From Acidimicrobiales bacterium (GTDB taxonomy: Bacteria > Actinomycetota > Acidimicrobiia > Acidimicrobiales > SZUA-35): a stretch of DNA of 64,000 bases. Location: the NCBI GenBank assembly GCA_965216675.1, contig CBDCGK010000004.1:2055692-2119691 (forward strand). The letters are read 5' to 3'. A model generated the notes under the pieces. The model made no database searches. It saw only the letters and a program-made list of their open reading frames with translations, and had not been told where the DNA came from. Made by a program: the position numbers and the translations under genes. Below are positions 9,338-55,491 of the stretch, piece after piece; the first letter of the stretch is position 1, and the number at the start of each line of letters is the position of its first letter.

Positions 9338-9339
9338 GT

Positions 9340-15338: not shown

Positions 15339-15408
15339 TGCCTGGCTGCACGACCACGGTCGGGCCGATGTCGTCTCCCAGTGGAACGAACCGGGCACAC
15401 GTCGATCG

Positions 15409-16779: not shown

Positions 16780-16806
16780 GGCCCGAACCAACCGGCCCAG
16801 AACGGG

Positions 16807-18980: not shown

Positions 18981-18993
18981 CGCTGCGGTCTTC

Positions 18994-21577: not shown

Positions 21578-21743
21578 GAAGTAGGCCGAGTCTGGCGAAC
21601 GCTTCGGCCCCGGTCGGGACCTGTGGGTGATCGGTAGCGTGCAGGAGCACCCCGTCCACCCCGAAGACATCGCGAAGTCTACAGCCCGGCAGCCGACGGT
21701 GCTGATAGGTCGACAATCCCGTCGAAGGCTCGGGCGCGGTACC

Positions 21744-22955: not shown

Positions 22956-23113
22956 CCAGCACCGTTCCTGGACCAAAGGCCCGGGTCGTCTGCCTCATCG
23001 TCGGGGGCCTCATAGGCGAGTTTCCCTGTTCTTAGCCCCCCAAGGGGTGACGGTAGGCTGGGTCGTGCCGACGTAGGCGAAGGCGATTTGCGGCCGGCGG
23101 AAAGGCGAATACC

Positions 23114-27455: not shown

Positions 27456-27498
27456 GGGATCGATCCCGCTTTCACCTGACCGAGCTGCCCGATAAACT
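27456..27498 (+). promoter_or_regulatory. Candidate operator-promoter 1: GGGATCGATCCC-N25-TAAACT, upstream of the Tad operon
   Basis: Perfect 12-bp palindrome at 27456-27467. TTTCAC lies at the -35 position and TAAACT at 27493-27498. Spacing is identical to the three other copies. Confidence 0.55.
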
Positions 27499-29271: not shown

Positions 29272-30597
29272 ATGAGCGACCGGGTCTTCGACGCGCTGGT
29301 GGAAACGGCTCGAACCGCCGTACAGGAGGCGCAGGCCCGAGCCGTCGACAACGGCAAACCCCGGCTGTCCTATGACGCCATGGAAGCCGTCGTGGTCGAC
29401 GCCGTCCGCGAGGGCATCAGCCGGTACGCCAACGAGCAGGTGCGACTCGGCCGACGTACGATGTCGGACTCCCAGGAGCAGGCGATGCTGCGGCGGGTGG
29501 TGCGGTTCGTCACCGGCCTCGGACCGGTCGAGGAACTGCTGGCCGACGATGCCGTCGAGGAGATCTACGGCCACTACGACTACGTGCAGATCGACAAGGG
29601 CGGCCAGCCGGTCGCCGTCGTCCGCGACCTGTGGCCCTCCGAGCAGGCGATGGTGCAGTGGCTGTCCGATCTGGCTCGCAACCGGGGCCTCACCGAGCGG
29701 CAGTTCAACGCCGGTTCGCCGTTGCTGGTGTTGCGGCTGCGGGCCGGGATGCGGCTGAGCGCGGTTCGCGACGTGTCGCAGCGGGCGATGTTCAACCTGC
29801 GGCGCAACACCCTCTCCTACGTCAACATTCCGATGCTGGTCGGCAAGGGCATGATGCCGTCTCATGTCGGCGAGCTGCTCCACGCGGCCATGGCGTGTGA
29901 GCTGATGCGGATCGTGTTCGTCGGAGCGACCGGAGCCGGCAAGACCACACTCGCCCGGGCTTGTCTCGACGAGCTGGATCCACAGAAGAACGTGGTCATC
30001 GTCGAGGACACCGCCGAGATCGACATGTGGCACCGGGAGCGCCATCCGCTGTTCCACTCCTTCGAGGTCCGGGAGCCGAACGCCGAGGGCGAGGGCGCGG
30101 TGCCGATGGCCCAACTCGTCAAACAGACACTTCGGCACCGCCCCGACTGGTTCTCGGTGGGCGAGTGCCGCGACGGCGACACGGCGGCCGAGATGTTGAA
30201 GGCCATGACCTCGGGCCACTCGTCGTTGACGACGGTGCACGCCGAGTCGGCCAAGGGCGGGATCGCCAAGATGGCCCTGATGCTCGCCCTGTCCGAGGGC
30301 CGGCTCTCGCTGCCGGTGGCCCACAATCTGATCTCGCAGGGTGTCGATCTGATCATCCACGTCGCCCGCGATCCCCGCAAGGGCCACCGCTACATCACCG
30401 AGGTGGTGGAGGTGGCGGGCTTCGACGGCGAGCAGGCGTCGATCAACCAGATCTACCGGGCCGAGCAGTCGCCGTTCGGCTACGTGACGACGTCGACCTT
30501 CAGCCCGAACCTCGAGGAACGGCTCGGCGGCGTCGGTCTCAACCTGCCCCGCTTCTACCAGCAGTGCGATCGGTCGGCGACGAAGGCGGTGTCGTAA
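29272..30597 (+). CDS. tadA: Tad secretion ATPase (CpaF/TadA, type II/IV secretion NTPase)
   Basis: Walker A FVGATGAGKTTLA, Walker B VVIVEDTAEI and the GECRDGD motif. Confidence 0.9.
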   Translation: MSDRVFDALVETARTAVQEAQARAVDNGKPRLSYDAMEAVVVDAVREGISRYANEQVRLGRRTMSDSQEQAMLRRVVRFVTGLGPVEELLADDAVEEIYGHYDYVQIDKGGQPVAVVRDLWPSEQAMVQWLSDLARNRGLTERQFNAGSPLLVLRLRAGMRLSAVRDVSQRAMFNLRRNTLSYVNIPMLVGKGMMPSHVGELLHAAMACELMRIVFVGATGAGKTTLARACLDELDPQKNVVIVEDTAEIDMWHRERHPLFHSFEVREPNAEGEGAVPMAQLVKQTLRHRPDWFSVGECRDGDTAAEMLKAMTSGHSSLTTVHAESAKGGIAKMALMLALSEGRLSLPVAHNLISQGVDLIIHVARDPRKGHRYITEVVEVAGFDGEQASINQIYRAEQSPFGYVTTSTFSPNLEERLGGVGLNLPRFYQQCDRSATKAVS

Positions 30598-36712: not shown

Positions 36713-38896
36713 TCAGTCGAGCGACCAGATCTGGACGGTGCCGTCGAGGCGACCGACGGCCAGCGCCCGGCCGGTGCTCGACCAGCTGACCGCGGTGGCG
36801 TCTCCGTTCCCCGAGGGGGTCAGTTCGACGACCTCGTCACCGGTGACGAGATCCCGGATCCGAACGACGCCGTCCGCGTATCCGACGGCCAGGAGCACGC
36901 CGTCGTCGAGCCGGAGATCGGATGCCAGCACGCTGTTGCCGACGTCGATGCTCGACAGATCCTCGACGGTCCCGTCGGCATCGACCGATCGGAGGGTGAC
37001 GGTGCCGTCATCGTCGGTGGTGAGGACGAGGGTGGCAGCCACCCACTGCACCGACCGGGTCCAACGCCGGTCCGGATTCTCGACGACGGCGATCGGTGCG
37101 GGGGTCTCGATGTCCCATACGATGACCCGACCGTCCTTGCCGCTTGACACCGCCCTCCCGCCGCTCGGGTCCCAGGCGAGGTCGAGCACGTCACCGTCGT
37201 GTCCGTCGAGCACTGCCGGCTCGGAACCGCCCAGATCCCGGACCACGATCCGTCCGCCGGCGTAGCCCTCGAGGAGTCGGGTGCCGCCCGGATCCCAGGC
37301 GACCGCCTCGGCCGATGAGGCGCCGGAGCCGACACGGGTCGGCCCGCCGCCGTCCACTGACGCCACGGCAACGGTCCCGTCGGTGACGGCCACAGCCATC
37401 TGTGTTCCGTCGGGCGACCAGGCGGCGTCGACGACCCAATCGCCGGCGTCGAACTCCGAAGCCGGACCGTTGGATCCCGACAGGGGCCAGATTCGAACCG
37501 CACCGTCGGTGCCGGCGGTGGCCAACTCCGGACCGGCCGGGGCGAAGGCCACGACGGTCACCCAGGACGACGGGTGCGCTTCCCACTCCCGTGTCGGCTC
37601 GCCGACATCAGCCCAAGCGGCACGAGCGGCGGCGGCCGACCGGTCGTCGGTGCTGCGCTCGATGAACTCGCCCGGTTTGGAACCGGATCCGGTCAGCCCC
37701 GCATAGGCGACCGCGGCGACCAGAAACCCGCCGGCGGCGAGCATCGCCCAGTGCCAGCTCGGCCTCGCTCGACCGGTGATGACCGAGCCGGACCGCCGAC
37801 GCGCAGGCTTGTCGACGGTCGGTTCCGTGGGACGGTCCATCGATCCGACCGGCCGCGTCGACGACGGCTCGACGGCCGCGCCGACATCACCGATCGGCTC
37901 GATGCGGAGCCGAGCCCGAGGTTCGGACTCCGGCTCCGGGGCCGGGTTCGGTGGCGGGGTCGGTTGGATGGGATTGCGATCGCCGCCGACCTCGGTCTCG
38001 GCTTCGACCTCGTCGCTCACGATCGGGGTCGGGTCGATGCCGTTGGCCTTCTGGATCTCGACGAGCCGGCGGGCGACCGCCAGACAGGTCGGCGGTCGAC
38101 GGTCCGGGTCTCGGGCCATCATGTCGGTGAGCAGGTCGGCGAGTGCCATTGGCGCCGATGCCGTCAGCCGGGGTGGCGTCTTCGCCGCGGTCACCCGGTG
38201 CACCACGACCTCGGTCGACGGGTCGGTGAACGCCGGCGTTCCCTCCGTCAGGGCGAAGAGGCTGGCACCGAGGGAGTAGATGTCGCTGCGCGCCGTGGGC
38301 CGCTCACCCTCCAGTACCTCGGGGGCACCGTACAGCGGCGTGGTGGAGACCTTGACCGTGAACGACCCACCGACACCGGGAGCGGCGAACGACGCGATGC
38401 CGAAGTCGGCCAGAATAGGCTGCCGATCGAACTCGCCACGGAAGATATTTGCAGGTTTGACGTCACGATGCACGAAACCTCTTGCGTGTGCGGTGTGCAA
38501 CGCACCGGCGATCTTTATACCGAAATCGACCACTTCCGGCCATGCCAATGGACCAGAATCATCGACCAGGTCGGCATAGTTGCCACGAGGGTAGTAGGGC
38601 ATGACGATGTACGGGTGCCGGTCCGCCGTCGTACCACTGCCGTACAGATCGATGATGTTCGGATGCGTCGACAGCCGACCCATCGCCGCCAGCTCGCGCT
38701 CGAGGGCAAGCTCCGTCGCAGCATCGACGCGGCCCCGGTGAAGCACCTTGACCGCAACGGTTCGACCGTGGCGAACATCCCTCGCCCGGTACACGACACC
38801 GGAGCTTCCCACGGCGAACTGCCCCAAATCGGCCAATCCCGGGATGCCGAGTTCGTTGGTCGACTTCCCTTCCCGATCGCCGTCGCCGCTCATCAC
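36713..38896 (-). CDS. Ser/Thr protein kinase with one TM segment and an extracytoplasmic WD40/beta-propeller domain
   Basis: Kinase motifs VAVKVL, HRDVKPANIF, DFGIA and YGAPEV. TM WHWAMLAAGGFLVAAVAYAGL. Repeated ...DG.VR.WDL/WSPDG... blades follow. Confidence 0.9.
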   Translation of the reverse strand: MMSGDGDREGKSTNELGIPGLADLGQFAVGSSGVVYRARDVRHGRTVAVKVLHRGRVDAATELALERELAAMGRLSTHPNIIDLYGSGTTADRHPYIVMPYYPRGNYADLVDDSGPLAWPEVVDFGIKIAGALHTAHARGFVHRDVKPANIFRGEFDRQPILADFGIASFAAPGVGGSFTVKVSTTPLYGAPEVLEGERPTARSDIYSLGASLFALTEGTPAFTDPSTEVVVHRVTAAKTPPRLTASAPMALADLLTDMMARDPDRRPPTCLAVARRLVEIQKANGIDPTPIVSDEVEAETEVGGDRNPIQPTPPPNPAPEPESEPRARLRIEPIGDVGAAVEPSSTRPVGSMDRPTEPTVDKPARRRSGSVITGRARPSWHWAMLAAGGFLVAAVAYAGLTGSGSKPGEFIERSTDDRSAAAARAAWADVGEPTREWEAHPSSWVTVVAFAPAGPELATAGTDGAVRIWPLSGSNGPASEFDAGDWVVDAAWSPDGTQMAVAVTDGTVAVASVDGGGPTRVGSGASSAEAVAWDPGGTRLLEGYAGGRIVVRDLGGSEPAVLDGHDGDVLDLAWDPSGGRAVSSGKDGRVIVWDIETPAPIAVVENPDRRWTRSVQWVAATLVLTTDDDGTVTLRSVDADGTVEDLSSIDVGNSVLASDLRLDDGVLLAVGYADGVVRIRDLVTGDEVVELTPSGNGDATAVSWSSTGRALAVGRLDGTVQIWSLD

Positions 38897-38963: not shown

Positions 38964-39006
38964 GGGATCGATCCCCATTGTCGGATCCGGGCACCCCGCT
39001 TAACGT
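38964..39006 (+). promoter_or_regulatory. Candidate operator-promoter 2: GGGATCGATCCC-N25-TAACGT, upstream of the WXG100 gene
   Basis: Palindrome at 38964-38975. TTGTCG lies at the -35 position and TAACGT at 39001-39006, about 43 nt before ATG 39049. Confidence 0.55.
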
Positions 39007-39048
39007 TGGCGACACGAACAAGAACTATCAAATCAGGAGGAAATGACA

Positions 39049-39327
39049 ATGGCACTCTTCGGTGCAGATATCGAACAACTGCGTGGCCTTGGATCCAAGT
39101 TCGACACCAACTGGGCGGGCGAACTCGAGGGCCTGATCGGCACCATCGATTCCGAGGTGGCGGCATCGGAGGCCATTTGGGTCGGTCCCGACGCCAACAA
39201 CTTCCGGGGCACCACCTGGCCCCAGCACAAGGCTGCGATGCAGGCGGCGCGGGAGGCCCTGATTCAAGCGGGCACCCTCGCTCGGGCTCAGGCCGACCAG
39301 CAGGAGCAGACGAGCGCCGTCCGCTGA
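39049..39327 (+). CDS. WXG100-family (ESAT-6-like) protein
   Basis: 92 aa, helical, with a central W-x-G (EAIWVGPDANNF). AGGAGG lies 8 nt upstream of ATG 39049; the track start at 39043 is too close to the SD. Confidence 0.8.
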   Translation: MALFGADIEQLRGLGSKFDTNWAGELEGLIGTIDSEVAASEAIWVGPDANNFRGTTWPQHKAAMQAAREALIQAGTLARAQADQQEQTSAVR

Positions 39328-39479: not shown

Positions 39480-40223
39480 TTAGTCGGCCTCGTGATCCTC
39501 GAGGGCCTCGAGATCGGTCTCGGTGAGGATCCCCCGCTCGATGGCCACCTCGGCCAGGATCCGCCGCCGGTCGTTGTTGCGGCCACCGACCCCCTTGTCG
39601 AGGCCCCGCACACCGAGGTTGGTGAGCCGCCCGCAGAGGTTGTCGAGTTTGCGGTTGAACTTGGTTTTGCTCCAACCCAGCCGGGTTTGAGCGTCGTCGT
39701 TGGTCGGGAGTTGGAGAGGCTGGTGCGGGTTGCGCAGGAGCGACTCGGCCAGCACGGTCATCAGGAGGCGTTGTTCATGAGTCCACGGAATGAGGTGCAG
39801 TCCGACGGTGTCGCTGGGTTCCGCCGGTTCGACGCGCTCGATCGGCGGCCCGCTGAGCAACAGCTCATAGCGGGTGGAGCCGGCCACGAAGTGCACGAGA
39901 AGGTTCTCACCGGGGAGCATTTGGCCGGTGCCGGACGTGAGCCGGGCGCTGGCCTTGGTGTCGCGGTCGAACATCTCCAGCTCGATGCGGGACCCGGTGT
40001 TGACCAGCCACCAGCGGCCGTCGCGATGCTCGAACCGGCCGAGTTGACGATGCAGAAAGGCGTTGTCGTCGATGTCGAGTTCGGCTCCCCGGCCGAACGT
40101 GAGCGACTGGTCCACCTCCAGCAGGGTCAACTCGCCGCAATAGTCGACCAGCAGACAGCCTTCGCCGACCGCCTCCGCATAGCCGTCGGGAAGGTCGTCG
40201 ATGTCGTCCATGGCCCTGACCAA
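39480..40223 (-). CDS. FHA-like domain protein with a putative C-terminal helix-turn-helix
   Basis: N-terminal LTFGRGAELDIDDNAFLHRQLGRFEHRDGRWWLVNTGS is a divergent FHA pattern. C-terminal DAQTRLGWSKTKFNRKLDNLCGRL looks like an HTH. Divergent from the EccC-like gene. Confidence 0.5.
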   Translation of the reverse strand: MVRAMDDIDDLPDGYAEAVGEGCLLVDYCGELTLLEVDQSLTFGRGAELDIDDNAFLHRQLGRFEHRDGRWWLVNTGSRIELEMFDRDTKASARLTSGTGQMLPGENLLVHFVAGSTRYELLLSGPPIERVEPAEPSDTVGLHLIPWTHEQRLLMTVLAESLLRNPHQPLQLPTNDDAQTRLGWSKTKFNRKLDNLCGRLTNLGVRGLDKGVGGRNNDRRRILAEVAIERGILTETDLEALEDHEAD

Positions 40224-40291: not shown

Positions 40292-43200
40292 ATGAGGTTG
40301 CTGCTGACGATCGAGGGAATCGGCGATCGATCGATCGAGGTGTCCGACGACGCCACCGTCGGCGATCTTCTGGACACGCTGGTCGTGACCGACCGGGTTT
40401 CGGACGACCACTCCCGGCCGGTGGCGGTTGCCCACGGGTTCGTGGTCGAGCGAACCGGTCAGGTGGTCACGCCGGAGACCCCGACCGCCAAGGCCAACAT
40501 CCGATCCGGAGACCGGGTCCGGCTCGTCGACCACGGGGAAGCGGTGCGGCTCGGCCGCTCGCTGCTCGACCCGTCCGGGCCGGTGGCCGACCGACCGGCG
40601 GCGTGGGTCAAGCTACTGACCGGCCCGATGGCCAATACCGTCTTCGAAGTCTCCTTCGGTGACAGCACGATCGGGCGGGGCCGGGACAACGACATCGTGA
40701 TCGACGACGACGCCATGTCGTCGCACCATGCGGTCGCCACCGTCGACGACCATTCGATCACCGTGACCGACCTGGCCTCCACCAACGGGGTGGTGACCGA
40801 CCGAGCCGCCGGCAACGACGCCCTCACCCGCTCGACGACCCTGCTCCCCGGACGCCGGGTGCTGCTCGGGACGACGTGGATCGAGATCGAGCACTGCCAC
40901 CGGACGAGAGGACTGGCCGACGTCGACGGCCCGACGGTCGAGTTCAACCGGCCACCCCGGCTCGTGACCCCCTTCGAGGCGCACTCCATCACGCTGCCCG
41001 AACCGCCCGACCATCCCGGACGAACCCGCCTCCCGATGATCACCGCCCTGGTCCCGCTTCTGATGGCCGGGGTGTTGGTGTATTCGCCGGTGATGTTCGG
41101 GGGTGAACCCAACTACCGGTACGGCCTGTTCATGCTGTTCTCGCCGCTGATGATCATGGGCTCGTTCTGGGAACGCAAGCGCAGCGGTCGCGCCGACTTC
41201 AAACAGGCTCTGAGGACGTTCCGAGCCGAGCTGTCGGTCGCCGAGTCCGAACTGTCGGCGGCCCAGGTTCACGAGCAGCGGGGCCGGTTGCGGGCGGCGC
41301 CGTCGATCACGGAACTGGCCGAGGCGGTCGATGCGCTGTCACCTCGCCTGTGGGAGCGAGCCGTCGGCGACACCGACACGTTCTCCCTTCGGGTCGGTCT
41401 GGCCGACCAGCCGTCGATGGTCGAGATCATCGACTCAGGACGGGGCCCGGCCGATCTCCGCCACGAGGTCGACGAGCTGCCGAACCGCTATGCAACGGTG
41501 CCGGGGGTTCCGGCGTTGGCCGACATGCGGGTACACGGCGGGATCGGGGTGTCGGGAACGCGGGAGTACGTCACGCCGCTCTGCTATTCGCTGGTCGCTC
41601 AGACCGCGATCCTGCACAGTCCGGCCGAGGTGCTGGTGGCAGCCATGGTTCCGCCCGACGCCAAACGGGACTGGGAGTGGATGAAGTGGCTGCCCCACTG
41701 TCCGCCCGAGGACTCCCCGCTCGGGGGACCACACCTGGCCGCCGACGAGCTGGCATGCCGCAACCTGCTCGGCCGGCTGCTGGAGCTCGTCGATCAGCGT
41801 GGAGGCGGACGGCACCACGGCCGGGAGCCGAACGGAGCCGGAGCCACGCCATGTGTGTTCGTGGTCATCGCCGAGGGCGTGCCCGTCGTGCAGCACGAAC
41901 TCACCCGTCTTCTCGAGGACGGCCCGAGCGCCGGGGTGTTTCCGCTGTGGATCTCCGGGGCCTCCCGTCGGGTCCCCCGCCCGATCGGCAATGTCATCGA
42001 CATCGCCCCCGACGGCTCGACCGCCACGCTGGCGTTCGCCGGGGGCGGAGCCAACCCCAACCCCGGCCCGGGCTCCAACGCCACCGCAAACCCGGCCCCG
42101 GCCGTCACCGACATCGCGATCGAAACCCTCGGCGAGGATGCGGTGACCGAGCTGGCCCGCCGCCTGGCGCCGGTCGAGGACGTCAGCGCCCGCTTCACCC
42201 GGACCTCCGCGATTCCCGACATGGTGAGCCTCGTCGATCTGCTCGGCGGCCCCGACGTTCTCGACACCCCCGACCGGCTCCTCGGCCGGTGGGCCGGTCG
42301 GCCCAAACACCTGGAGGCACCGGTCGGCCGGACCGCCGACGGGGTCTTCACCCTCGACATCCGCCGCGACGGACCCCACGGCCTCGTCGGCGGGACCACC
42401 GGCGCAGGCAAGAGCGAGTTCCTGCAGACCTGGATCATGGCGATGGCGGCGTCGTTCAGTCCGGAGACGGTCAACTTCCTCCTGGTCGACTACAAGGGCG
42501 GTGCGGCGTTCAAGGACTGCAGCCGTCTGCCTCACTCGGTCGGCATGGTCACCGACCTCGATCCGGCCGGAATCCGCCGGGCGCTGGTGTCGCTCGGAGC
42601 CGAGGTCCGCCGCCGGGAACTCATCCAGGACGAGCACAACTGCACCAGCCTGCTCGACATGATCGACAAGGGCATCGACGAGGCGCCACCGAGTCTGCTC
42701 ATCATCGTCGACGAGTTCGCCGCCCTGGTGCAGGAGGTACCGGAGTTCATCGAGGGCATGGTCGACATCGCCCAGCGGGGTCGCAGCCTCGGCGTGCATC
42801 TTGTGCTGGCCACTCAGCGGCCGGCCGGAGTGATCACCGGGCAGATCAAGGCCAACACCGACCTCCGTATCGCGCTGCGCACCTCCGACAAGGAAGACTC
42901 GGTCGACGTGATCGAGACACCCGACGCCGCCGACATCGATCGGCGAACCCCGGGGCGGGCGATCTCCCGCATCGGCCGTCAACGCACCCAATTCCAGTCG
43001 GCCTACGTCGGCGGCGTGACCGAAACCGATGCGATGTCGGGCCCGGAGGTCGGCATCGACAGGTTCTCCTTCGACGGCATCGAGCCGATCGATATCCCCG
43101 GCGACAGGCGACAGGACGAGCGGACCGGGGCCACCGACCTGGAGCGGCTGGTCGACAACATCGAAGCAGCCCACCGCCGGTCGAACCGACCGATGCCCCG

Positions 43201-44770
43201 ACGCCCGTGGCTCGATCCGCTGCGCCCGGCCTACGACCTGGAGAACCTGTTCGACGCCGTCGCCGGCACCGACGTGGACCCGGCAACCGTCGTCGATTCC
43301 GGCGGTTCCCTACCGATCGGTCTGGTCGACCTCCCTGATGACCAGACCCAGGTTCCGTTCACGTTCCGGCTCGACACCGACGGCAGCCTGGGTGTGGTCG
43401 GAGCGGGCGGCGCCGGCAAGACGGTGGCGCTGCGGACCATCGCCGTGGCCGCCGCCCTCTCGGTCGACGATCCCTCCGACGCCCCGATCGTCTACGGGCT
43501 CGACTTCGCCGGGCGCGGCCTGCAGATGCTCGAAACCCTGCCCCATGTGGCGGGCATCGTGGCCGACGACGAGCCCGAGCGGATCCAGCGGGTGCTGGCC
43601 ACCATGGAGACCGAACTCGTCGAACGCACCCGTCTGTTCTCCGAGGCGAGGGCCTCGTCGTTCCCCGAATACCGGCGGGCGTCGGGCGGATCGATGGTGC
43701 GGCATCTGCTCCTCATCGACGGCTACCCGTCGTTCCACGAGCTGTACTCCGGCGTGGAACGGGACCGATGGATCAACCTGGTTCGGCGCCTCATCGTCGA
43801 GGGCCGCCAGTTCGGACTGCACGTGGTGCTGACCGCTCCCCGGCGCGACACCGTCTACTCCACCGTCGCCCGCTCCATCGGACGGTGGCTCGTGCTCCGC
43901 CAGACGTCGAGCGACGACTATCGGAGCCTCGAACTGCCGCCCGACCTGCTGGGAGAGGAACCACCGCCTGGACGGGCGATCCACAATCGCCGCATGGCCC
44001 AAGTGGCCGTGCTCGGCGGACGCCCCGACACCGAATCCCAGGTCCAGGCGGTGTCGAGGTTGGGCGCCGAGATGACACGGCGGGGATTCCCGTCCGCTCC
44101 CCCGATCCGGTTGCTTCCCACCGAGGTCGACCGGAGCGACCTCGTCGAGCCGCGGGCCGTCGGCCTGCTTGACCGCGACTTCAGCGAATGGACCCTGCCC
44201 GAACGGTTCCGGGTGTTCCTCGTCACCGGGCCCCGCTCCAGCGGTCGAACGACCGCACTGTTCACGCTCGGTGCAGCGGCGACCGAGGCGACCGACGCCT
44301 CGGCGAACGGCCGAGCCGACGTGATCCTGTTGTCGGCACGCCCTCCGGCTGCGCCGATCCCAGCCGACTGGCGGACGGCTGTCGGCGACACGGAGGTGCG
44401 GCCCGTCGTCGACGAGCTCTCCGCTCCGGCGACGACGTCGGCGGGAGGCCGGCGAACCGTCGTCCTGGTCGACGACGCCACGGCGCTGGTCGACATGGGC
44501 GTTCCGTTGGGACCACTCGTCGAGGCCGCCGACGGCGAACGGCTCCGTGTGATCGTCGTGATGGACGACACGAAGGCGCGATCCAACTTCGACGCCTTCT
44601 CCCGTTCGGTGCGGGCGTCACGTCTCGGCCTTCTGCTGCGGCCGAGCCCGTTGGAGGACAAGGAGATCTACGGCCTACCACTACCCCGGGTGGCCAGTCA
44701 CCTCTGGCCTGTCGGCCGCGGCTACATCGTTGACGACCAGGCGATCGAGATGATCCAGCTCGGAGCGTGA
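40292..44770 (+). CDS. eccC: Type VII secretion FtsK/SpoIIIE-family ATPase (EccC/EssC-like) with N-terminal beta-grasp-like and FHA domains
   Basis: FHA pattern TIGRGRDNDIVIDDDAMSSHHAVATVDDHSITVTDLASTNGVV. Two TMs (LPMITALVPLLMAGVLVY and YGLFMLFSPLMIMGSFW). Three P-loop domains: GGTTGAGKSEFL with LLIIVDEFAAL, GAGGAGKTVAL with HLLLIDGYP, and TGPRSSGRTTAL with VVLVDDATAL. Confidence 0.9.
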   Translation: MRLLLTIEGIGDRSIEVSDDATVGDLLDTLVVTDRVSDDHSRPVAVAHGFVVERTGQVVTPETPTAKANIRSGDRVRLVDHGEAVRLGRSLLDPSGPVADRPAAWVKLLTGPMANTVFEVSFGDSTIGRGRDNDIVIDDDAMSSHHAVATVDDHSITVTDLASTNGVVTDRAAGNDALTRSTTLLPGRRVLLGTTWIEIEHCHRTRGLADVDGPTVEFNRPPRLVTPFEAHSITLPEPPDHPGRTRLPMITALVPLLMAGVLVYSPVMFGGEPNYRYGLFMLFSPLMIMGSFWERKRSGRADFKQALRTFRAELSVAESELSAAQVHEQRGRLRAAPSITELAEAVDALSPRLWERAVGDTDTFSLRVGLADQPSMVEIIDSGRGPADLRHEVDELPNRYATVPGVPALADMRVHGGIGVSGTREYVTPLCYSLVAQTAILHSPAEVLVAAMVPPDAKRDWEWMKWLPHCPPEDSPLGGPHLAADELACRNLLGRLLELVDQRGGGRHHGREPNGAGATPCVFVVIAEGVPVVQHELTRLLEDGPSAGVFPLWISGASRRVPRPIGNVIDIAPDGSTATLAFAGGGANPNPGPGSNATANPAPAVTDIAIETLGEDAVTELARRLAPVEDVSARFTRTSAIPDMVSLVDLLGGPDVLDTPDRLLGRWAGRPKHLEAPVGRTADGVFTLDIRRDGPHGLVGGTTGAGKSEFLQTWIMAMAASFSPETVNFLLVDYKGGAAFKDCSRLPHSVGMVTDLDPAGIRRALVSLGAEVRRRELIQDEHNCTSLLDMIDKGIDEAPPSLLIIVDEFAALVQEVPEFIEGMVDIAQRGRSLGVHLVLATQRPAGVITGQIKANTDLRIALRTSDKEDSVDVIETPDAADIDRRTPGRAISRIGRQRTQFQSAYVGGVTETDAMSGPEVGIDRFSFDGIEPIDIPGDRRQDERTGATDLERLVDNIEAAHRRSNRPMPRRPWLDPLRPAYDLENLFDAVAGTDVDPATVVDSGGSLPIGLVDLPDDQTQVPFTFRLDTDGSLGVVGAGGAGKTVALRTIAVAAALSVDDPSDAPIVYGLDFAGRGLQMLETLPHVAGIVADDEPERIQRVLATMETELVERTRLFSEARASSFPEYRRASGGSMVRHLLLIDGYPSFHELYSGVERDRWINLVRRLIVEGRQFGLHVVLTAPRRDTVYSTVARSIGRWLVLRQTSSDDYRSLELPPDLLGEEPPPGRAIHNRRMAQVAVLGGRPDTESQVQAVSRLGAEMTRRGFPSAPPIRLLPTEVDRSDLVEPRAVGLLDRDFSEWTLPERFRVFLVTGPRSSGRTTALFTLGAAATEATDASANGRADVILLSARPPAAPIPADWRTAVGDTEVRPVVDELSAPATTSAGGRRTVVLVDDATALVDMGVPLGPLVEAADGERLRVIVVMDDTKARSNFDAFSRSVRASRLGLLLRPSPLEDKEIYGLPLPRVASHLWPVGRGYIVDDQAIEMIQLGA

Positions 44771-45180
44771 ACGACAACCGTTGGTGGCCCGGAGCCGCTA
44801 CCGTTGCGGATCGAAGAATGGACAAGAACATGAACGCGGACAACGACAGGAAAAACAAGGACAGGAATACCGACGATCACCGGGTGGACCGCCGGGATCA
44901 TCGGATGTCCGAGCCGCGCTCGGGTGGTCCGGCCGAGACCGCCATGCGTCAAGGCATCATCGCGCTGTCGCCTTTCTTCGTCGTGGTCAGCCGCCTCATG
45001 GGCGTGCTCATCTCCGGAGTCGGTCTGCTGCTCGTCGTGGCGGGTATCGCGGGCGCCGACGACGGGGGCCTCGTCCTCGCCGTCGTCGGGCTGGTGCTGG
45101 TCGCACTCGGACTGCTGATCTTCTTCGGCGGTCCCCGCTATGCCCGGACGGTCCGGCGACATCACGGCGCCGGTTCCTGA
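44767..45180 (+). CDS. Small membrane protein (charged N-terminus, 2-3 TM helices), translationally coupled to eccC
   Basis: The GTG start overlaps the eccC stop (GTGA). TM segments IIALSPFFVVVSRLMGVLISGVGLLLVVAGIAG and LVLAVVGLVLVALGLLIFFGG. No family recognised. Confidence 0.5.
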   Translation: MNDNRWWPGAATVADRRMDKNMNADNDRKNKDRNTDDHRVDRRDHRMSEPRSGGPAETAMRQGIIALSPFFVVVSRLMGVLISGVGLLLVVAGIAGADDGGLVLAVVGLVLVALGLLIFFGGPRYARTVRRHHGAGS

Positions 45181-45198
45181 CAGCGATCCCGCCGATCG

Positions 45199-45241
45199 GG
45201 GATCGATCCCGATTTTCGGTCCCGACCTGATTTTCTACCAT
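45199..45241 (+). promoter_or_regulatory. Candidate operator-promoter 3: GGGATCGATCCC-N25-TACCAT, upstream of the WXG-fusion effector
   Basis: Palindrome at 45199-45210. TTTTCG lies at the -35 position and TACCAT at 45236-45241, about 43 nt before GTG 45284. Confidence 0.55.
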
Positions 45242-45283
45242 CGCCGACGACAGCGGTAGTAGGACGATGGAAGGGATCGGCCG

Positions 45284-46453
45284 GTGGCAGACCTCCATGG
45301 GTTGGACATTGACGAGATGACCCGGCTCGCCGGCGAGATCGACCGGGCGGCCGACGGATGCGACGTCGTCGCCGGGGCGGCTTCGGTCGGTGCGGCCGAA
45401 TCGGTGCGGATCTGGGTTGGAGCCGATGCGGACGACTTCCGCAGTACGTGGTCGGCCACCCACGATCCGGCGGTGCGGCGGGCGGGAGCCGAACTGCGGG
45501 CGATGGCCGAGGTCATCCGGCGCAACCGGGACGAGCAGATCGTCGCCAGCGACGCCGGGACGATCAGCGGCGGTCCGGGTGGGTTCCCCGGCCAGCCAGG
45601 TTGGCCCGGTGGCCCGGGTGGGGCTGGTGGCGCCGGAGGCGCCGGGCCGACGATCACCGTCGACCCCGACGGTCGGGTCTGGACCGGCGCGTTCGACGTG
45701 GGCGACCGGACCGACGGGCGCCTGATCGGTGAGTACGAAACGGGTTGGGCGCTGTCGGCGGCCGCCGCCGGTTCCGCCTCCTACCAGGAGGTCCCGGGCG
45801 GCTTCGAGTTCGACGCCTGGATCGAGGGTCGCTCCGGCTTCCAGGCCCAGGTCGGCGGCACCTACACGAACAATCACCTCGGGCACGATCTTCTGGCCCA
45901 GGGCGAGCTCGGCGTCTTCCTCGGCGGACGAGGCGAGGGGTCGACCGCGCTGGCCTGGACCGACGATGGCTATCTCATCGACCTCGAAGCCGAGGCGTTT
46001 CTCGGAGCCGAGGCCTATGCCAACGGCAACGTCGACTACGGGGCGCTTGGGGCCGGCGGCGCCGCGGTGGCCATGGTCGGCGCCACCGCCGGGGCCAACT
46101 ACCTGAACGAATTCGACGGCCGCAACGTCCGAACCGACCTCGGGGCCGAGGCGTTCCTGGGGGCCAAGGCCGGGGTGGAAGGCGATGTCACGCTGTTCGG
46201 CGACGACGTCTCGGTCGGAGGCGGTGTCGGTGTGTCGACCGGTATCGGCGGCGGCATCGACGGTGGCTTCGCCTTCGGGCTCGACGAGGTCGGCGTCGAA
46301 CTGGATCTGGGTCTGGCCCTCGGCCTCGGCTTCGACGCCTCCATCGACCTGTCATTCGACCCTGTCGGCGTCGGCAGCGGATTGGTCGATGCCGGCGGGG
46401 CCGCCGTCGACTTCGGCAAGGACACCACCGGTTGGATCAGCCCATGGTGGTGA
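45284..46453 (+). CDS. WXG100-like N-terminal domain fused to a Gly/Pro linker and a Gly/Ala-rich C-terminal domain (candidate T7SS substrate)
   Basis: The N-terminus (V)ADLHGLDIDEMTRLAGEI...VRIWVGADADDF parallels the standalone WXG100 (ALFGADIEQLRGLGSKF...AIWVGPDANNF). Linker GGPGGFPGQPGWPGGPGGAGGAGGAGP. The C-domain has internal repeats (EAEAFLGAEAYANG / LGAEAFLGAKAGVEG). Confidence 0.7.
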   Translation: MADLHGLDIDEMTRLAGEIDRAADGCDVVAGAASVGAAESVRIWVGADADDFRSTWSATHDPAVRRAGAELRAMAEVIRRNRDEQIVASDAGTISGGPGGFPGQPGWPGGPGGAGGAGGAGPTITVDPDGRVWTGAFDVGDRTDGRLIGEYETGWALSAAAAGSASYQEVPGGFEFDAWIEGRSGFQAQVGGTYTNNHLGHDLLAQGELGVFLGGRGEGSTALAWTDDGYLIDLEAEAFLGAEAYANGNVDYGALGAGGAAVAMVGATAGANYLNEFDGRNVRTDLGAEAFLGAKAGVEGDVTLFGDDVSVGGGVGVSTGIGGGIDGGFAFGLDEVGVELDLGLALGLGFDASIDLSFDPVGVGSGLVDAGGAAVDFGKDTTGWISPWW

Positions 46454-46493
46454 ACCGAGCGAACCGAGTGAACCGACAACCGAAAGGACGATC

Positions 46494-46997
46494 ATGACCC
46501 GCACCATGGGCTTTCCCACCCCCGACTTCCCCGGCCCCCCACCGTTCCGATTCGAGCTCCCGCAGGACTGGCGGGCGATGCCGTCGGTCCAAGCCGACGC
46601 TGTCGTCGTCGGACCGGAGGCCCACGACGGGGTGCACCCGAACGTGGTGGTCGCCAACCACAAGGTACCGCCCACCGACGATCCGGCATCGCTGCTCCGG
46701 ACCATGATCGATCAACAGGTCCGGCGCGACAACGTTCAGCTCGACGGTGACCCGGCGGTGTCCGACGACGGTCTATCGTGCCGCGTGCGTCTCACCCGCC
46801 GCGGCACCGCTGAGGCCGCGCCCGGCGACGCCGCCGCGGTCCCGACCGATGCGGTCGACATTGCGCAGTCGCTGAACCTGCGCTACATCGCCGGCTCACA
46901 CGTGGCCCATGTCCTGGCCGCCACCGGCACCTACGCCCCGTCAAGCGACGAAAGCCGTGCCGTGGTCGACGAGGTGATCCGCTCCGTCGAGTGCTGA
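46494..46997 (+). CDS. Effector-associated accessory protein (paralog of 52467..53114; candidate chaperone/adaptor or immunity)
   Basis: ATG 46494 lies within ORF 46185..46997, preceded by AAAGGA. It shares DFPxxPxxxxxxPxxWR and VxGPxxxDGVxPNxxVxxxxVP blocks with the 52467 gene. Confidence 0.55.
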   Translation: MTRTMGFPTPDFPGPPPFRFELPQDWRAMPSVQADAVVVGPEAHDGVHPNVVVANHKVPPTDDPASLLRTMIDQQVRRDNVQLDGDPAVSDDGLSCRVRLTRRGTAEAAPGDAAAVPTDAVDIAQSLNLRYIAGSHVAHVLAATGTYAPSSDESRAVVDEVIRSVEC

Positions 46998-51180: not shown

Positions 51181-52374
51181 TCAGTAGCTCTTGGGGAGCC
51201 CCAGGCACTTCTGGGCGACGAAGGCCAGGACCAGGTTGTTGTTGATCGGGGCCACCTGGTAGAGGCGGGTCTCCCGGAGTTTGCGTTCGATGTCATACTC
51301 GGTGGCGAATCCGAAGCCGCCGTGGGTGTTGACCGCGGCGTTGCCCGCCTCCCACGACGCCTCCGAGGCGAGCATCTTCGCCATGTTGGCCTCGGCTCCA
51401 CACGATCGGCCGGTGTCGAACAGCTCGGCGGCCTTCCACCGCATCAGGTTGGCCGCCTCGAGGTGGGCGTACGCCTTGGCCAGGGGAAAGGCCACGCCCT
51501 GGTTCATGCCGATGGGCCGCCCGAAGACGACACGCTCCTTCGCGTACGCCGACGCCCGATCGAGGAAGAACGTGCCGTCACCGATGCACTCGGAGGCGAT
51601 GAGGATGCGTTCGGCGTTCATGCCGTCGAGGATCTGACGGAAGCCGTTGCCCTCGACCCCGACCAGCGAGTCGGCGGGGATCTCGACGTCGTCGAAGAAC
51701 ACCTCGGTCGAGTTGTGGTTCATCATCGTCTCGATGGGGTTGATGGTGAGCCCGGGCAGCAGCTCGCCGTCGTCACCTCGGAGATCGAACAGGAACGTCG
51801 ACATGCCGGCCAGCCGCTCGGCTGGATCATCCGAGGGCGCAGTGGTGCGGGCCAGGAGCAACATCATGTCGGAGTACAGGGCCCGTGAGGTCCAGATCTT
51901 CTGGCCGCTGACCTTCCAGACATCACCGTCTCGAACGGCTCGGGTGCGGATGGCGGTGGTCTCGGATCCGGCGGTCGGTTCGGTCACCCCGAAGGCCTGG
52001 AGCCGCTTTCGTCCATCGGCGATCTGGGGCAGGTAGCGCTGCTTCTGCTCGTCGGAGCCGTGGCGTAACAGTGTGCCCATGATGTACATCTGGGCGTGGC
52101 AGGCCGACGGGTTGCCACCCGAGGCGGCGATCTCCTCCAGGATCACCGACGCCCCGCCGAGGCTCAGACCCCCGCCGCCGTACTCGGTCGGGATGAGCGA
52201 ACCGAGCCAGCCCTGATCGGTGAGTTCGGAGACGAACTCCTCCGGGTAGCGGTCGGGTTCGAGGGAGCGCCAGTAGTCGTTGCCGTAGTCGTCGCACAAT
52301 CGGCGGATCTCGGATCGGATGAGATCGTGGTCCTCGTCGGTGTAGGGATCGGCGTCGGTGTCGGCAGCGCTCAT
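51181..52374 (-). CDS. Acyl-CoA dehydrogenase
   Basis: Full-length ACAD pattern (LQAFGVTEPTAGSE, GGFGFATEYDIERKLRE). Confidence 0.9.
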   Translation of the reverse strand: MSAADTDADPYTDEDHDLIRSEIRRLCDDYGNDYWRSLEPDRYPEEFVSELTDQGWLGSLIPTEYGGGGLSLGGASVILEEIAASGGNPSACHAQMYIMGTLLRHGSDEQKQRYLPQIADGRKRLQAFGVTEPTAGSETTAIRTRAVRDGDVWKVSGQKIWTSRALYSDMMLLLARTTAPSDDPAERLAGMSTFLFDLRGDDGELLPGLTINPIETMMNHNSTEVFFDDVEIPADSLVGVEGNGFRQILDGMNAERILIASECIGDGTFFLDRASAYAKERVVFGRPIGMNQGVAFPLAKAYAHLEAANLMRWKAAELFDTGRSCGAEANMAKMLASEASWEAGNAAVNTHGGFGFATEYDIERKLRETRLYQVAPINNNLVLAFVAQKCLGLPKSY

Positions 52375-52417
52375 AGCGCCTCAACCGTAGTCAACGCCGG
52401 ACGCAGCCGGACAGCCG

Positions 52418-52460
52418 GGGATCGATCCCGATTTCGTCATCGCGGGCCGGTTTCTACGAT
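52418..52460 (+). promoter_or_regulatory. Candidate operator-promoter 4: GGGATCGATCCC-N25-TACGAT, upstream of the satellite effector module (leaderless geometry)
   Basis: Palindrome at 52418-52429. TTTCGT lies at the -35 position and TACGAT at 52455-52460. ATG 52467 begins 6 nt after the hexamer. Confidence 0.55.
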
Positions 52461-52466
52461 CAGGTC

Positions 52467-53114
52467 ATGGATACCACGTTGGACGAACCCGTCACCGAGA
52501 CCGGAGCCCACCCGCGGCCCGACGGGAGTGGAACGGGACGCACCGTGCGCCATCCGTCGGTCGACTTCCCGCCGGCACCGGTGGTGGAGCTCGTGATCCC
52601 GGAGACGTGGCGACCGATCGGGGTTGCCGTCCTCAACGAGATGCGGACGCAGCCCGACATCGCCGTTGCCGGGCCGGACGTGGTCGATGGCGTACGTCCG
52701 AACCTGATGGTCAAGACGAGTCGGGTGCCGGGCACCGAAGGCGGGCACCCGCCGGAGGCGAGGACCCTTTTGGCCAGGCTCTTCGACCGTCAGGCCGACG
52801 AGCGGGGCGTCCTCGACTTCGAGTTCCGGATCCACGACGACGGGCCCCAACCCTATGGGGTCAGCCGGCACCGGGAGCTGCCGTCGGGTGTCGAGGTCCT
52901 GCGACTGACCTGCGCCATCGTCGTGTCGAGCGATCCGATCCGGTACCTGGTCATCACCCAGGCCTCGGCGAGCCCGGCCGACGAGCTCGGTCTGGCCGCC
53001 ATCGAGGCCGCGTTCGGGTCACTGCGGATCGCAGCACCCGTACCTCCCACCGATGGCAGGACCCCGGCCAGTGACACGGCCTTAGCCAATGACAGGGCCA
53101 CAAACGATGCCTGA
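52467..53114 (+). CDS. Effector-associated accessory protein (paralog of 46494..46997)
   Basis: Shares blocks with 46494 (DFPPAPVVELVIPETWRPIG, VAGPDVVDGVRPNLMVKTSRVP). Its 3' end overlaps the toxin gene start by 8 nt (ATGCCTGA). Confidence 0.55.
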   Translation: MDTTLDEPVTETGAHPRPDGSGTGRTVRHPSVDFPPAPVVELVIPETWRPIGVAVLNEMRTQPDIAVAGPDVVDGVRPNLMVKTSRVPGTEGGHPPEARTLLARLFDRQADERGVLDFEFRIHDDGPQPYGVSRHRELPSGVEVLRLTCAIVVSSDPIRYLVITQASASPADELGLAAIEAAFGSLRIAAPVPPTDGRTPASDTALANDRATNDA

Positions 53115-54207
53115 ACTGGTTGGCGCAGACATCGAGCGGCTGCGGGCGATGGCATCGTCGTTCGAGCACCGGGCCGAGGCCATCACCTCGATGGAGCGAC
53201 AGGTCACGGCGGCCTGCGGGGAGCTTCACCGGTTCTGGCACGGCGCCGATGCAGCCGACTTCGTCGGCCGGTGGCAGTCGAACCATCGTCCGAGGCTCCT
53301 TGCCGTGGCGGCCGGTCTTGTCGACGTGTCCCAGCTGCTGAGCGGCAACGCCGACGAGCAGCACCTGACCAGCAGTGTCGGCGGCGGAGCCACGACGGGT
53401 GGCGGCCGCTTCGACCGCGGCGCCGGCGGCGGCGGAGGAGGAGGCGGCTGGGGTGGCGGTTTCGGCCTGCCGATACTCGGTGACGGCTGGAACCTGGTCA
53501 GCGAGTTCGCCACCGACACCTGGGACGGCATCACCGACACGGCCGGCACCGTCTGGGACGGGGCAACCGACGTGGCGGTCGACACCTGGGACGGTCTCAC
53601 CGACACCGCCGGAACCGTGTGGGGAGGCATCACCGGCACCGCCGGCACGGTCTGGGGTGGGCTGACGTCGGCTGCCGGGGCGGCTGTCGACGAAACCGGC
53701 CACCGACTCTCCGAGTTCGGACAGTACGGCCTGGCCTACACGGAGCGATGGCTCGACAACCCGATCCAATCGGTGTTCGACGAACTCACGTTCACCGGAC
53801 AATTCGAGCGACTCGTCGGAGCGGGCTCGATTCTGTTTCTCGGCGGCGAATACCAGGAGAACCTGGGCAACGGTGACGCCGAGTTCATCACCGGCCTGCC
53901 GATCCGTTTCAACGACGCGATCACGCTCGGCCATTCCGTGCTGATCGACGATCCTCGACCAAGCGGTGGTCTCCTTGAGCACGAGCTACAGCACGTCGAC
54001 GACGTCGAGGCGGTTGGCGGGGTCGGCTTCTATTCGAGCTACCTCGGCAACTGGATCGGCAACATCATCGGCGGTCAGGATCCGAGCATCGGCGGCGAAG
54101 CCTACGAGAACATCTGGTGGGAGCAGCGGGCCCACGCCACGCAGGACGGCAATCCGCCCTCCGATCTCGACTTCGGCCGGTTCGATCCCCGCAACTGGTT
54201 CGACTGA
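53107..54207 (+). CDS. WXG100-like N-terminal domain fused to Gly-rich/tandem-repeat linker and a C-terminal HExxH (DUF4157-like) metallopeptidase-type toxin domain
   Basis: N-terminus MPELVGADIERLRAMASSF...RFWHGADAADF. Poly-Gly tract. Repeats (TDTAGTVWDG-like) x5. C-terminal AITLGHSVLIDDPRPSGGLLEHELQHVDD, with HELQH at 53980-53994. Confidence 0.7.
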   Translation: MPELVGADIERLRAMASSFEHRAEAITSMERQVTAACGELHRFWHGADAADFVGRWQSNHRPRLLAVAAGLVDVSQLLSGNADEQHLTSSVGGGATTGGGRFDRGAGGGGGGGGWGGGFGLPILGDGWNLVSEFATDTWDGITDTAGTVWDGATDVAVDTWDGLTDTAGTVWGGITGTAGTVWGGLTSAAGAAVDETGHRLSEFGQYGLAYTERWLDNPIQSVFDELTFTGQFERLVGAGSILFLGGEYQENLGNGDAEFITGLPIRFNDAITLGHSVLIDDPRPSGGLLEHELQHVDDVEAVGGVGFYSSYLGNWIGNIIGGQDPSIGGEAYENIWWEQRAHATQDGNPPSDLDFGRFDPRNWFD

Positions 54208-54650
54208 TGGGCGATCCAGCCGCCGACCGGGCCGGTGGTACGCTCGGCGACGTGCCCCGCACATCCGTCGACACCCTTGGACGCACTGCCGCCGCGCTTG
54301 CACTTGCCACCGTGCTGCTCGCCGCCTGCTCACAATCGCGCCCGGTCACGATCACGTCGCCGTGTGACACCGACGTGTTGGTCGACTGGCTGTACCGGTC
54401 GCAGGGCGGGAGCGATGTGGTCACCGAGGACTACGTGATCGAAGCCGGCGAACACGTCTACAGCGACGCAGTGGAGACCGAGTACATCGCCCTCACGGTC
54501 GACGGTCGGATTCTGGCCGAGACGTCCCTGCCGGCCGACAAACTCGACGATGAGGGCGCAAACGCCTTTCCGCCGATGGCGATCCCGGCCGAGGCCTGCA
54601 GTGAGCTCACTCCCGCCACCGACGACGGGTCCGGCACCGGCGGATACTGA
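54207..54650 (+). CDS. Lipoprotein, candidate cognate immunity protein
   Basis: ATG 54207 overlaps the toxin stop (TGATG). Signal and lipobox AAALALATVLLAAC. Small (147 aa); no family recognised. Confidence 0.55.
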   Translation: MGDPAADRAGGTLGDVPRTSVDTLGRTAAALALATVLLAACSQSRPVTITSPCDTDVLVDWLYRSQGGSDVVTEDYVIEAGEHVYSDAVETEYIALTVDGRILAETSLPADKLDDEGANAFPPMAIPAEACSELTPATDDGSGTGGY

Positions 54651-54693
54651 CATCAGGTCGACGGCACCGGCCCGTTCGGTGAGATACTGAACC

Positions 54694-55491
54694 ATGGTCG
54701 AGTCGGAACACTCGCCGCATCTCGACGATGCGATCTCCGAAACACCGGCCGACGCGACCGACGACCCCGGTCCGGTGGTGATCCTCGCCTACGACGGTCT
54801 GGCCGCCGACGAGGCGGCCGTCCTGGTCGAGATCCTCTCGACCGCCGACCTCGACGTCACCATCGCCAGCGTCCTGGCCGAGCCGGTCACGTCCTACAAC
54901 GGGAGGGTGGTCGTGGCCCGCCCGGCGGGATCGATCGAGCGCTGCAGCGCGCTCCTCGTCCCCGGCGGCCTCGGGGTGCGCACCACCGCCGAGAACCCGG
55001 CGGTGCTTCGAGCGATCGCCGAGCTGTCGACGAAGGCCCGGTGGCTCGGGGCGACGTCGACCGGGTCGGTCCTGTTGGCCGCTGCCGGCATCATCGACGG
55101 GGCCCGGGTCACGACGCATTGGCTGGCCGGCGACCTCATCACCGACCGGGGACTGGAGCTGTCGGAGGAACCACTGGTCGAGTGGGGTCGGCTGCTCACC
55201 GCCTCGGGCATCGTCGGCACCGCCGATCTGTCGTTCCGGTTGGTCGGGGCGCTTCTCGGGCACAAGGCCGAGACCCGGGTGCGCTCGGTGTTCGTCCCGC
55301 CGCCATCCGACGCCGATCCCCGCTACCGCCGCGACTCCCGGCGGTGGTGGCGTCGGATCGCCTCGTCACTGGCGGGCCGACCCGATCAGTCGTCCCGCAA
55401 ACGAGTGGTCGACGAAGACCGCACCCTGGCGCTGATGGACCCTGAGGGCCGAGCCGACGTGTTCGTGCTCGATCTCGTCGACGACGAGTGA
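54694..55491 (+). CDS. DJ-1/PfpI-family protein (nucleophile Cys apparently replaced)
   Basis: VVILAYDGLAADEAAVLVEIL, ALLVPGGLG and RVTTHWLAG. The nucleophile elbow reads GATSTGS instead of the usual xxxCxG. Confidence 0.7.
   Translation: MVESEHSPHLDDAISETPADATDDPGPVVILAYDGLAADEAAVLVEILSTADLDVTIASVLAEPVTSYNGRVVVARPAGSIERCSALLVPGGLGVRTTAENPAVLRAIAELSTKARWLGATSTGSVLLAAAGIIDGARVTTHWLAGDLITDRGLELSEEPLVEWGRLLTASGIVGTADLSFRLVGALLGHKAETRVRSVFVPPPSDADPRYRRDSRRWWRRIASSLAGRPDQSSRKRVVDEDRTLALMDPEGRADVFVLDLVDDE

Follow-up and report, generated by a model that had tools for sequence, protein, structure and literature searches.

Does a member of the Acidimicrobiales carry a weapon delivered by type VII secretion? 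The question is raised by three overlapping forward-strand genes in a window of 64,000 nucleotides from an Acidimicrobiales bacterium (assembly GCA_965216675.1, contig CBDCGK010000004.1, positions 2,055,692 to 2,119,691), which encode an accessory protein, a protein that ends in an HExxH domain and a small lipoprotein (Table 1). We consider it fairly probable that they form a three-gene type VII secretion system (T7SS) effector module, consisting of a zinc-protease toxin, a lipoprotein antidote and a helper. All three proteins represent unannotated families, and their overall design is most likely that of a known kind of bacterial weapon. Established for this locus are the domain identities, a remote homology, the fold predictions, the linkage of the genes across genomes and a shared promoter motif.

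The window has a G+C content of ~68% throughout, and a gene call based on G+C at third codon positions (GC3) resolves three consecutive plus-strand genes whose open reading frames (ORFs) all have coding-type GC3 (0.76–0.84). The N-termini of six toxin orthologues (62–70% identity) all read M-[AP]-[ED]-[LV]-x-G-A-D, which places the start of the toxin at the ATG at 53107 and its length at 366 residues. Both gene overlaps described in the initial annotation are present, as ATGCCTGA at 53107–53114 between the first and second genes and as TGATG at 54205–54209 between the second and third. The nearest relatives are Acidimicrobiales metagenome-assembled genomes (MAGs); a word-indexed homology search yielded six close relatives, and an exhaustive profile search was needed for more. 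Related loci (L-numbers) were gathered with an eight-sequence alignment, and ten loci were examined for gene linkage.

The identity of the presumed toxin lies in its C-terminal domain of ~175 residues, where the sequence HELQH occupies residues 292–296 (53980–53994). An exhaustive profile search with residues ~190–366 against 1.84 billion proteins returned 83 representatives at E ≤ 1e-3, three of which, all long repeat proteins (P0020, P0026 and P0055), were discarded as spurious because their many-fold matches were restricted to profile positions 12–96 (mostly 17–84). Across 42 diverse sequences G275 (G89 in alignment A5), E234, E293 and H296 are invariant, and H276, H292, E301, E339 and several residues of the N-terminal helical part are nearly so. 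An AlphaFold2 model of the domain (predicted local distance difference test score, pLDDT, 93.2) is built of three long helices and a four-stranded sheet, after which come the HExxH helix and several others. H292-E293-x-x-H296 would form the catalytic motif of a zinc metallopeptidase, with the third metal ligand probably contributed by E339, or else by E301 or H276. The full signature reads HELQHVDD, with an aspartate where the known motif HExxHxxQ has glutamine, and conserved glutamates follow downstream (301 and 339).

Distant relatives place this domain more precisely. Six of 55 family members match the Pfam family PF13699 (DUF4157) weakly (best E 3.6e-4), and a search of 5.8 billion sequences with the family profile (A5) retrieves two proteins, P0110 (E 4.5e-9) and P0111 (E 2.9e-6), both of which exceed the PF13699 gathering score of 22 bits (26.9 and 25.3 bits, respectively). 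Alignment of the family with P0111 by hhalign (97% probability, E 8.7e-11, 70 columns) covers an identical AITLGHTV strand and also the HE..HV helix. Foldseek searches of BFVD with the model give several matches at probability 0.99–1.0, including a phage 'DUF4157 domain-containing protein' (target-normalised template modelling (TM) score 0.72, root-mean-square deviation 1.6 Å). These results support, as distant homology, a place for the C-terminal domain within the DUF4157/PVC-metallopeptidase superfamily, on a branch that is both divergent and extended.

Family members other than short fragments carry the HExxH domain at or near the C terminus, behind varied N-termini. Nine have WXG-like N-termini, and others have RHS repeats (P0032), a PrsW domain (P0043, locus L007) or RTX-like repeats (L005); one C-terminal domain joined to such different N-termini bears out the earlier description of a polymorphic toxin. 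Loci L005 and L007 lie on a single MAG contig (JAHDCC010000004.1), about 21 kb apart, and so present two trios of toxin, PsbP-like and lipoprotein genes, one toxin being fused to RTX-like Gly-Asp repeats and the other to an N-terminal PrsW membrane protease domain. Further WXG fusions are found in L003, from a related MAG (7628–9340, minus strand, and 2596–3576, plus strand), behind copies of the palindrome GGGATCGATCCC described below and beside an ATPase gene; one of these, of 570 residues, ends in a domain with a GHSFGG motif that looks like an α/β-hydrolase or lipase. The terminal position of the HExxH domain also bears on whether it is a toxin at all. It could be a self-processing peptidase that releases other cargo, the role assigned to most PVC-metallopeptidase domains (Zhang et al. 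2012, PMC3482391), or a catalytically dead scaffold. We regard either as very improbable: the domain forms the extreme C terminus and is followed by no cargo, an arrangement that the same authors single out as likely toxin use, and family members conserve the H-E-H triad together with other polar residues.

If the domain is a toxin, its most constant companion is the lipoprotein encoded by the third gene. This protein matches nothing in Pfam or NCBIfam, and has a lipobox (L-A-A-C) at Cys41 (54327–54329) within its one hydrophobic segment (residues 23–42). Every homologue retains the lipobox, and three cysteines, Cys41 and the pair Cys53 and Cys131, are invariant across seven homologues in which six other loci are represented. 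In each of the ten loci a hidden Markov model of the family finds a member beside the toxin-domain gene, irrespective of which trafficking domain the toxin has at its N terminus; these loci include the RHS-fused L009 and L004, in which the lipoprotein gene lies upstream. An HExxH domain that travels with RHS and other delivery N-termini and is constantly accompanied by a lipoprotein has the signature of a toxin–immunity pair, and the lipoprotein is the probable immunity protein. Cysteines are found on the toxin side as well: a Cx5C pair is present in 32 of the 42 toxin domains, and a second pair in many. One or two such pairs (Cx5C, and CxC or Cx9C; A5 columns 80/87 and 167/190) are conserved in most domains outside the clade to which the window protein belongs. 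Taken together, the lipoprotein linkage, the Cx5C pairs and a precedent from type VI secretion systems (T6SS) discussed below argue for action outside the cytoplasm, with the lipoprotein as antidote, as the initial annotation had proposed.

The role of the first gene is less obvious. Its 215-aa product has no Pfam or NCBIfam match, no hydrophobic segment and no signal peptide. A 16-sequence alignment gave an AlphaFold2 model (pLDDT 81) with a predicted PsbP/Mog1/DUF1795(Eag)/LpqN/Tsi3-like fold, and Foldseek searches of the PDB rank an uncharacterised Jonesia protein (3lyd, E 7e-7), MTC28, LpqN and PsbP best, followed by lower matches to EagT6 (6xrf) and SciW (6xrr), at probability 1.0 and E about 3e-3, and to the immunity protein Tsi3. 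The Pfam DUF1795 model matches none of six members of the family. PsbP-like homologues adjoin the toxin gene in eight of the ten loci; they are encoded upstream of it in L001, L003 and the window itself, and downstream of it in L005, L006, L007 and L008. Another division of labour is conceivable, in which the toxin would act in the cytoplasm of the target, the PsbP-fold protein would be the true immunity protein, and the lipoprotein would have some other part to play, for example as a receptor, as an aid to secretion or as additional protection. The match to Tsi3, the translational coupling to the toxin gene, the position directly beside the toxin gene even in distant loci (upstream in L003, downstream in L005–L008) and the lack of cysteines in the toxins of the window clade are all compatible with such a scheme. 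We nevertheless think it unlikely, given that L004 and L009 have no PsbP-like gene yet retain the pairing of toxin domain and lipoprotein, and that a PsbP-like paralogue in the window (profile E 2.6e-19) follows a WXG fusion with an unrelated C-terminus. Because of these two observations the protein fits an effector-handling helper better than an antidote specific to one domain, and an effector chaperone or adaptor is the more likely role.

Delivery by a T7SS is suggested by the opposite end of the toxin. On its own the window protein scores below the curated WXG100 cut-offs, with 17.7 bits against 27.3 for PF06013 (E 4e-3) and 22.9 against 44.85 for the NCBIfam model TIGR03930 (E 7e-5), so that direct matches are weak; a 13-sequence profile of WXG N-termini (A11), by contrast, matches the solved EsxA/EsxB proteins over their full length (best E 3.5e-6) and upholds the WXG100-like targeting domain first proposed. 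The first ~92 residues also align with the two other local WXG proteins, as had been noted, through the motifs G-A-D-I, W-x-G-x-D-A and D-x-Q-x-x-x-S common to all three N-termini; the local WXG proteins share N-A-D-E-Q-x-x-T-S. Tandem Repeats Finder confirms the poly-Gly tract and tandem repeats between the two domains, reporting a period-3 GGC-type tract at 53417–53459 and 4.2 copies of a 33-bp unit at 53520–53656 (66% matches) that correspond to the 11-aa TDTAGTVWDG units. Among the orthologues (P0002–P0007) this W-D-G-x-T-D-T-A-G-T-V spacer varies from zero to about five copies, and the domains on both sides are conserved.

A presumed secretion motor is encoded in the same window. The nearby ATPase with FHA and FtsK/SpoIIIE domains is matched best by the NCBIfam EssC model (574 bits), with EccCa and EccCb matching too, all below their equivalog cut-offs; it has an N-terminal FHA domain, and the Bacillota EssC model outscores the actinobacterial EccC models. 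Homologues of the toxin module adjoin ATPase homologues in L003 and L008. The initial annotation put the module 5.4 kb from the ATPase, a distance that needs correcting: the module begins 7.7 kb past the end of the ATPase gene (44770) and 5.5 kb past the last gene of the secretion cluster (end 46997). The stretch from the cluster to the module encodes a prolyl oligopeptidase, an acyl-CoA dehydrogenase and a member of the beta-lactamase family. A second effector set (44767–46997) comprises the 389-aa WXG fusion, whose repetitive Gly/Ala-rich C-terminus could be membrane-active, a PsbP-like paralogue and a 137-aa protein (44767–45180) with an extended hydrophobic region that probably forms two transmembrane helices. 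The free WXG100 gene is directly preceded, on the minus strand (36713–38896), by a gene in which a Ser/Thr protein kinase is fused to a WD40 propeller; with the FHA domain, a phosphothreonine reader, on the ATPase, this gene hints at control of secretion by phosphorylation. Further away, a 586-aa protein (3902–5662, plus strand) combines an alginate-lyase domain with RTX calcium-binding repeats, and its gene adjoins a polysaccharide biosynthesis cluster (12648–24115).

A cis-element is shared by the module and other genes of the window. Exact copies of the perfect 12-nt palindrome GGGATCGATCCC number four, where 0.81 would be expected by chance (27456–27467, 38964–38975, 45199–45210 and 52418–52429). 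Each is intergenic and upstream of plus-strand genes: the first precedes a CpaB-like gene of the Tad pilus (27651), the second the free WXG gene, the third the gene of the 389-aa fusion and the fourth the toxin module, and the regulon that they mark takes in every WXG gene of the window. The Tad/Flp pilus operon in this regulon includes, besides the CpaB-like gene, a TadA-like ATPase gene (29272–30597). Copies stand at the equivalent position in L001 (287–298), L003 (2523–2534 and 9383–9394) and L008 (2730–2741). At each site the palindrome abuts a −35-like hexamer (TTGnnn-like), followed after 17–18 nt by TAnnnT in the window, L001 and one L003 site, and by GAnnnT in L008 and the other L003 site. 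At the toxin module the sequence TACGAT stops 7 nt short of the start codon at 52467, an arrangement implying that the mRNA is leaderless; a generic sigma-70 promoter and terminator scan made no calls in 52300–54900, a stretch that includes this TTTCGT/TACGAT element. As a motif, the shared operator of the initial annotation is real and conserved in other genomes; a site immediately upstream of the −35-like hexamer would suit an activator as well as an operator. Divergent from the ATPase gene, a 247-aa protein without family matches is encoded on the minus strand (39480–40223), with what appear by eye to be an FHA-like N-terminus and a helix-turn-helix-like C-terminus; it could be a protein that binds GGGATCGATCCC.

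Several points weigh against a secreted metallopeptidase weapon. The first concerns the enzyme: the initial call of a DUF4157-like metallopeptidase stands as distant homology, but a direct Pfam match is lacking, the window protein giving no PF13699 match even at E ≤ 1. A Foldseek search of the PDB with the C-terminal domain model returned nothing with E < 1, so that a known zincin template cannot be named; when PDB chains were searched by sequence and by profile, the domain gave chance sortase matches alone (E about 0.5), and phmmer with P0111, a bona fide DUF4157 protein, as query found nothing in the PDB and so builds no bridge to the structure of VgrG2b. Since matches to PF13699 and to solved structures are lacking, the metallopeptidase call rests on motif conservation and remote homology. 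As to export, EccB, EccD, MycP, EsaA and EssB were not identified within the window, and the YxxxD/E export motif of mycobacterial ESX systems is absent, toxin residues 1–95 containing no tyrosine at all. Eag chaperones bind transmembrane helices of T6SS effectors, and the effector here has neither predicted transmembrane helices nor a hydrophobic segment. The toxin domains of the window clade have no cysteines, so the disulfide argument applies to their relatives only; the loss may reflect an altered folding environment or altered stability requirements. Finally, the locus is syntenic and vertically inherited among close relatives, and is no variable toxin hotspot. T7SS export, peptidase activity, the target compartment, neutralisation, and the immunity and chaperone roles are steps that we infer.

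The conserved setting brings a peaceful function into consideration, namely a secreted protease that remodels the cell's own envelope or scavenges nutrients, paired with a lipoprotein that inhibits or regulates it specifically, the whole under common control with the WXG proteins and Tad pili. The chromosomal position and the DJ-1 and thioredoxin genes that flank it are kept in the relatives at 62–70% identity, with no cassette replacement seen at the locus; GGGATCGATCCC precedes the Tad/Flp pilus operon (27456) too; and mycobacterial DUF4157 genes adjoin the cell-wall hydrolase gene ripC (PMC12067865). To this explanation we assign a low probability, as a housekeeping protease accounts poorly for the fusion of the same C-terminal domain to RHS repeats and other toxin-delivery N-termini, or for the small lipoprotein that always accompanies it.

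The reading we prefer remains the toxin module, and its parts could work together as follows. A promoter adjacent to GGGATCGATCCC would drive a leaderless, translationally coupled operon of three genes. The WXG100 hairpin would present the effector to the T7SS ATPase, the variable Gly/repeat spacer joining the hairpin to the peptidase, and the exported peptidase would attack a protein target on the outer side of the membrane or in the wall of neighbouring cells. Anchored in the outer leaflet and disulfide-bonded, the lipoprotein would bind and block the peptidase, so that the producer and its kin are protected. The PsbP/Eag-fold protein would most likely stabilise the effector or escort it to the secretion machine, and may hold it inactive before export.

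A wider proposal, which we put forward tentatively and hold to be possible more than probable, is that the Acidimicrobiia have an undescribed flavour of T7SS antagonism, in which a PsbP/Eag-fold protein acts as a general effector chaperone, the payload is a structurally novel DUF4157 branch that cuts envelope proteins of neighbours, and a single conserved palindromic site switches on the arsenal and the Tad pili together, so that toxin release is coupled to adhesion or contact. To our knowledge, a role of this fold as effector chaperone has so far been known for T6SS only, and T7SS toxins have been well studied only in Bacillota and mycobacteria; our literature search found no paper joining Acidimicrobiia and type VII secretion. 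In an actinobacterial class that has been neglected, the locus offers a defined, testable trio made up of an effector, its immunity protein and a helper. For peptidases of the DUF4157 superfamily, it would add T7SS as a third means of delivery to the two already known, T6SS and contractile injection systems. The locus also supplies three unannotated protein families, two of them with confident structure predictions, the toxin domain having no solved relative, and the conserved GGGATCGATCCC gives a handle on the regulation of WXG/T7SS systems and of the adjacent Tad pilus.

Table 1. Features of the toxin module and of the related genes in the window (positions in the 64,000-nt stretch)
Feature	Position	Strand	Length, basis or remark
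Free WXG100 protein	39043–39327	+	94 aa; TIGR03930 E 3e-5; palindrome copy upstream at 38964
FHA-FtsK/SpoIIIE ATPase, EssC/EccC-like, presumed secretion motor	40292–44770	+	Pfam FtsK_SpoIIIE 2.6e-48 and FHA
Second effector pair	45284–46997	+	behind palindrome 45199
WXG fusion with Gly/Ala-rich C-terminus	45284–46453	+	389 aa
PsbP-like paralogue	46494–46997	+	
Perfect 12-nt palindrome GGGATCGATCCC	52418–52429	+	cis-element common to the local T7SS/Tad regulon
Promoter-like element (TTTCGT, 17 nt, TACGAT)	52432–52460	+	read from sequence
Accessory protein gene	52467–53114	+	215 aa
Toxin gene	53107–54207 (ORF call from 53089, 372 aa)	+	366 aa
WXG100 (ESAT-6-like) domain, toxin residues 1–92, W44-H-G46	53107–53382	+	profile match
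Variable linker: Gly-rich tract, then about five imperfect 11-aa repeats (TDTAGTVWDG type)	53383–53673	+	
HExxH domain, predicted toxin	53674–54207	+	~175 aa; profile, conservation, AlphaFold2 model
Lipoprotein gene	54207–54650 (ORF call from 54117)	+	147 aa

How the module relates to known systems is best seen part by part. With DUF4157/PF13699, the 'eCIS core domain' or PVC-metallopeptidase, the toxin domain has in common a core of β-sheet and HExxH helix and the AITLGHTV...HExxHV motif seen in P0111. It differs in lying below Pfam detection, in reading HExxHxxD in place of HExxHxxQ, and in standing at the C terminus instead of the N terminus. No contractile-injection genes (sheath, tube or baseplate) are found among the annotated genes of the window, for which reason an association with an extracellular contractile injection system (eCIS) was rejected. 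Zhang et al. (2012, PMC3482391) gave the PVC-metallopeptidases the signature HExxHxxQ...E and considered C-terminal copies to be probably toxins, listing the PVC route alone for delivery and no immunity protein. They also described Tox-MPTase1, an HExxH toxin domain of Actinobacteria and other bacteria that occurs in T7SS (WXG) and RHS architectures. Compared by description only, Tox-MPTase1 has the same architectural range as the window toxin family. The Pfam library presumably includes models of other Tox-MPTase families, and the C-terminal domain of the window protein matches nothing in that library, nor in NCBIfam.

Among T7SS toxins the closest designs are TelC-TipC of Streptococcus intermedius and EsaD/EssD-EsaG and TspA-TsaI of Staphylococcus aureus, in which, too, a helical domain for T7SS targeting stands at the N terminus and a variable toxin at the C terminus. 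LXG/WXG toxins of this kind have an adjacent immunity gene and small export partners as well, and TelC acts outside the membrane, its immunity protein being membrane-anchored and extracellular. The window module departs from them in its host, which belongs to the Acidimicrobiia and not to the Bacillota, in its DUF4157-like peptidase, and in a partner of the PsbP/Eag fold in place of a small helical Lap or WXG-like protein. That partner resembles the T6SS chaperones EagT6 and SciW in its predicted fold, in being cytoplasmic and in the coupling of its gene to the effector gene; it differs in having no Pfam DUF1795 match and an effector without predicted transmembrane helices to shield, and is structurally nearer to the actinobacterial PsbP-like proteins 3lyd, MTC28 and LpqN than to Eag.

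The nearest parallel in overall design comes from T6SS, in the pairs Tpe1-Tpi1 and VgrG2b C-terminal domain-PA0261 (Wood et al. 2019, PMC6899460). Tpe1 and the C-terminal domain of VgrG2b are frequently annotated as DUF4157, are toxic in the periplasm only, and have as antidotes Dsb-dependent immunity proteins that are either periplasmic or lipoproteins (PMC6899460). The window carrier, in contrast, is a T7SS WXG100 hairpin in an actinobacterium of Gram-positive type and not VgrG or PAAR; its peptidase domain has an extra conserved N-terminal extension of three helices and no sequence or Foldseek match to PDB chains, including the deposited VgrG2b structure; and the module has a third gene, that of the PsbP-fold protein. 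Extracytoplasmic action, shown for the T6SS toxins, would apply to the window toxin by extension. Common to both are a small HExxH peptidase of the DUF4157 kind, carried as the C-terminal payload of a secretion-system carrier, and a neighbouring small gene for an exported, disulfide-containing and often lipid-anchored antidote, which supports viewing the module as a probable T7SS-coupled analogue of Tpe1/VgrG2b-Tpi1.

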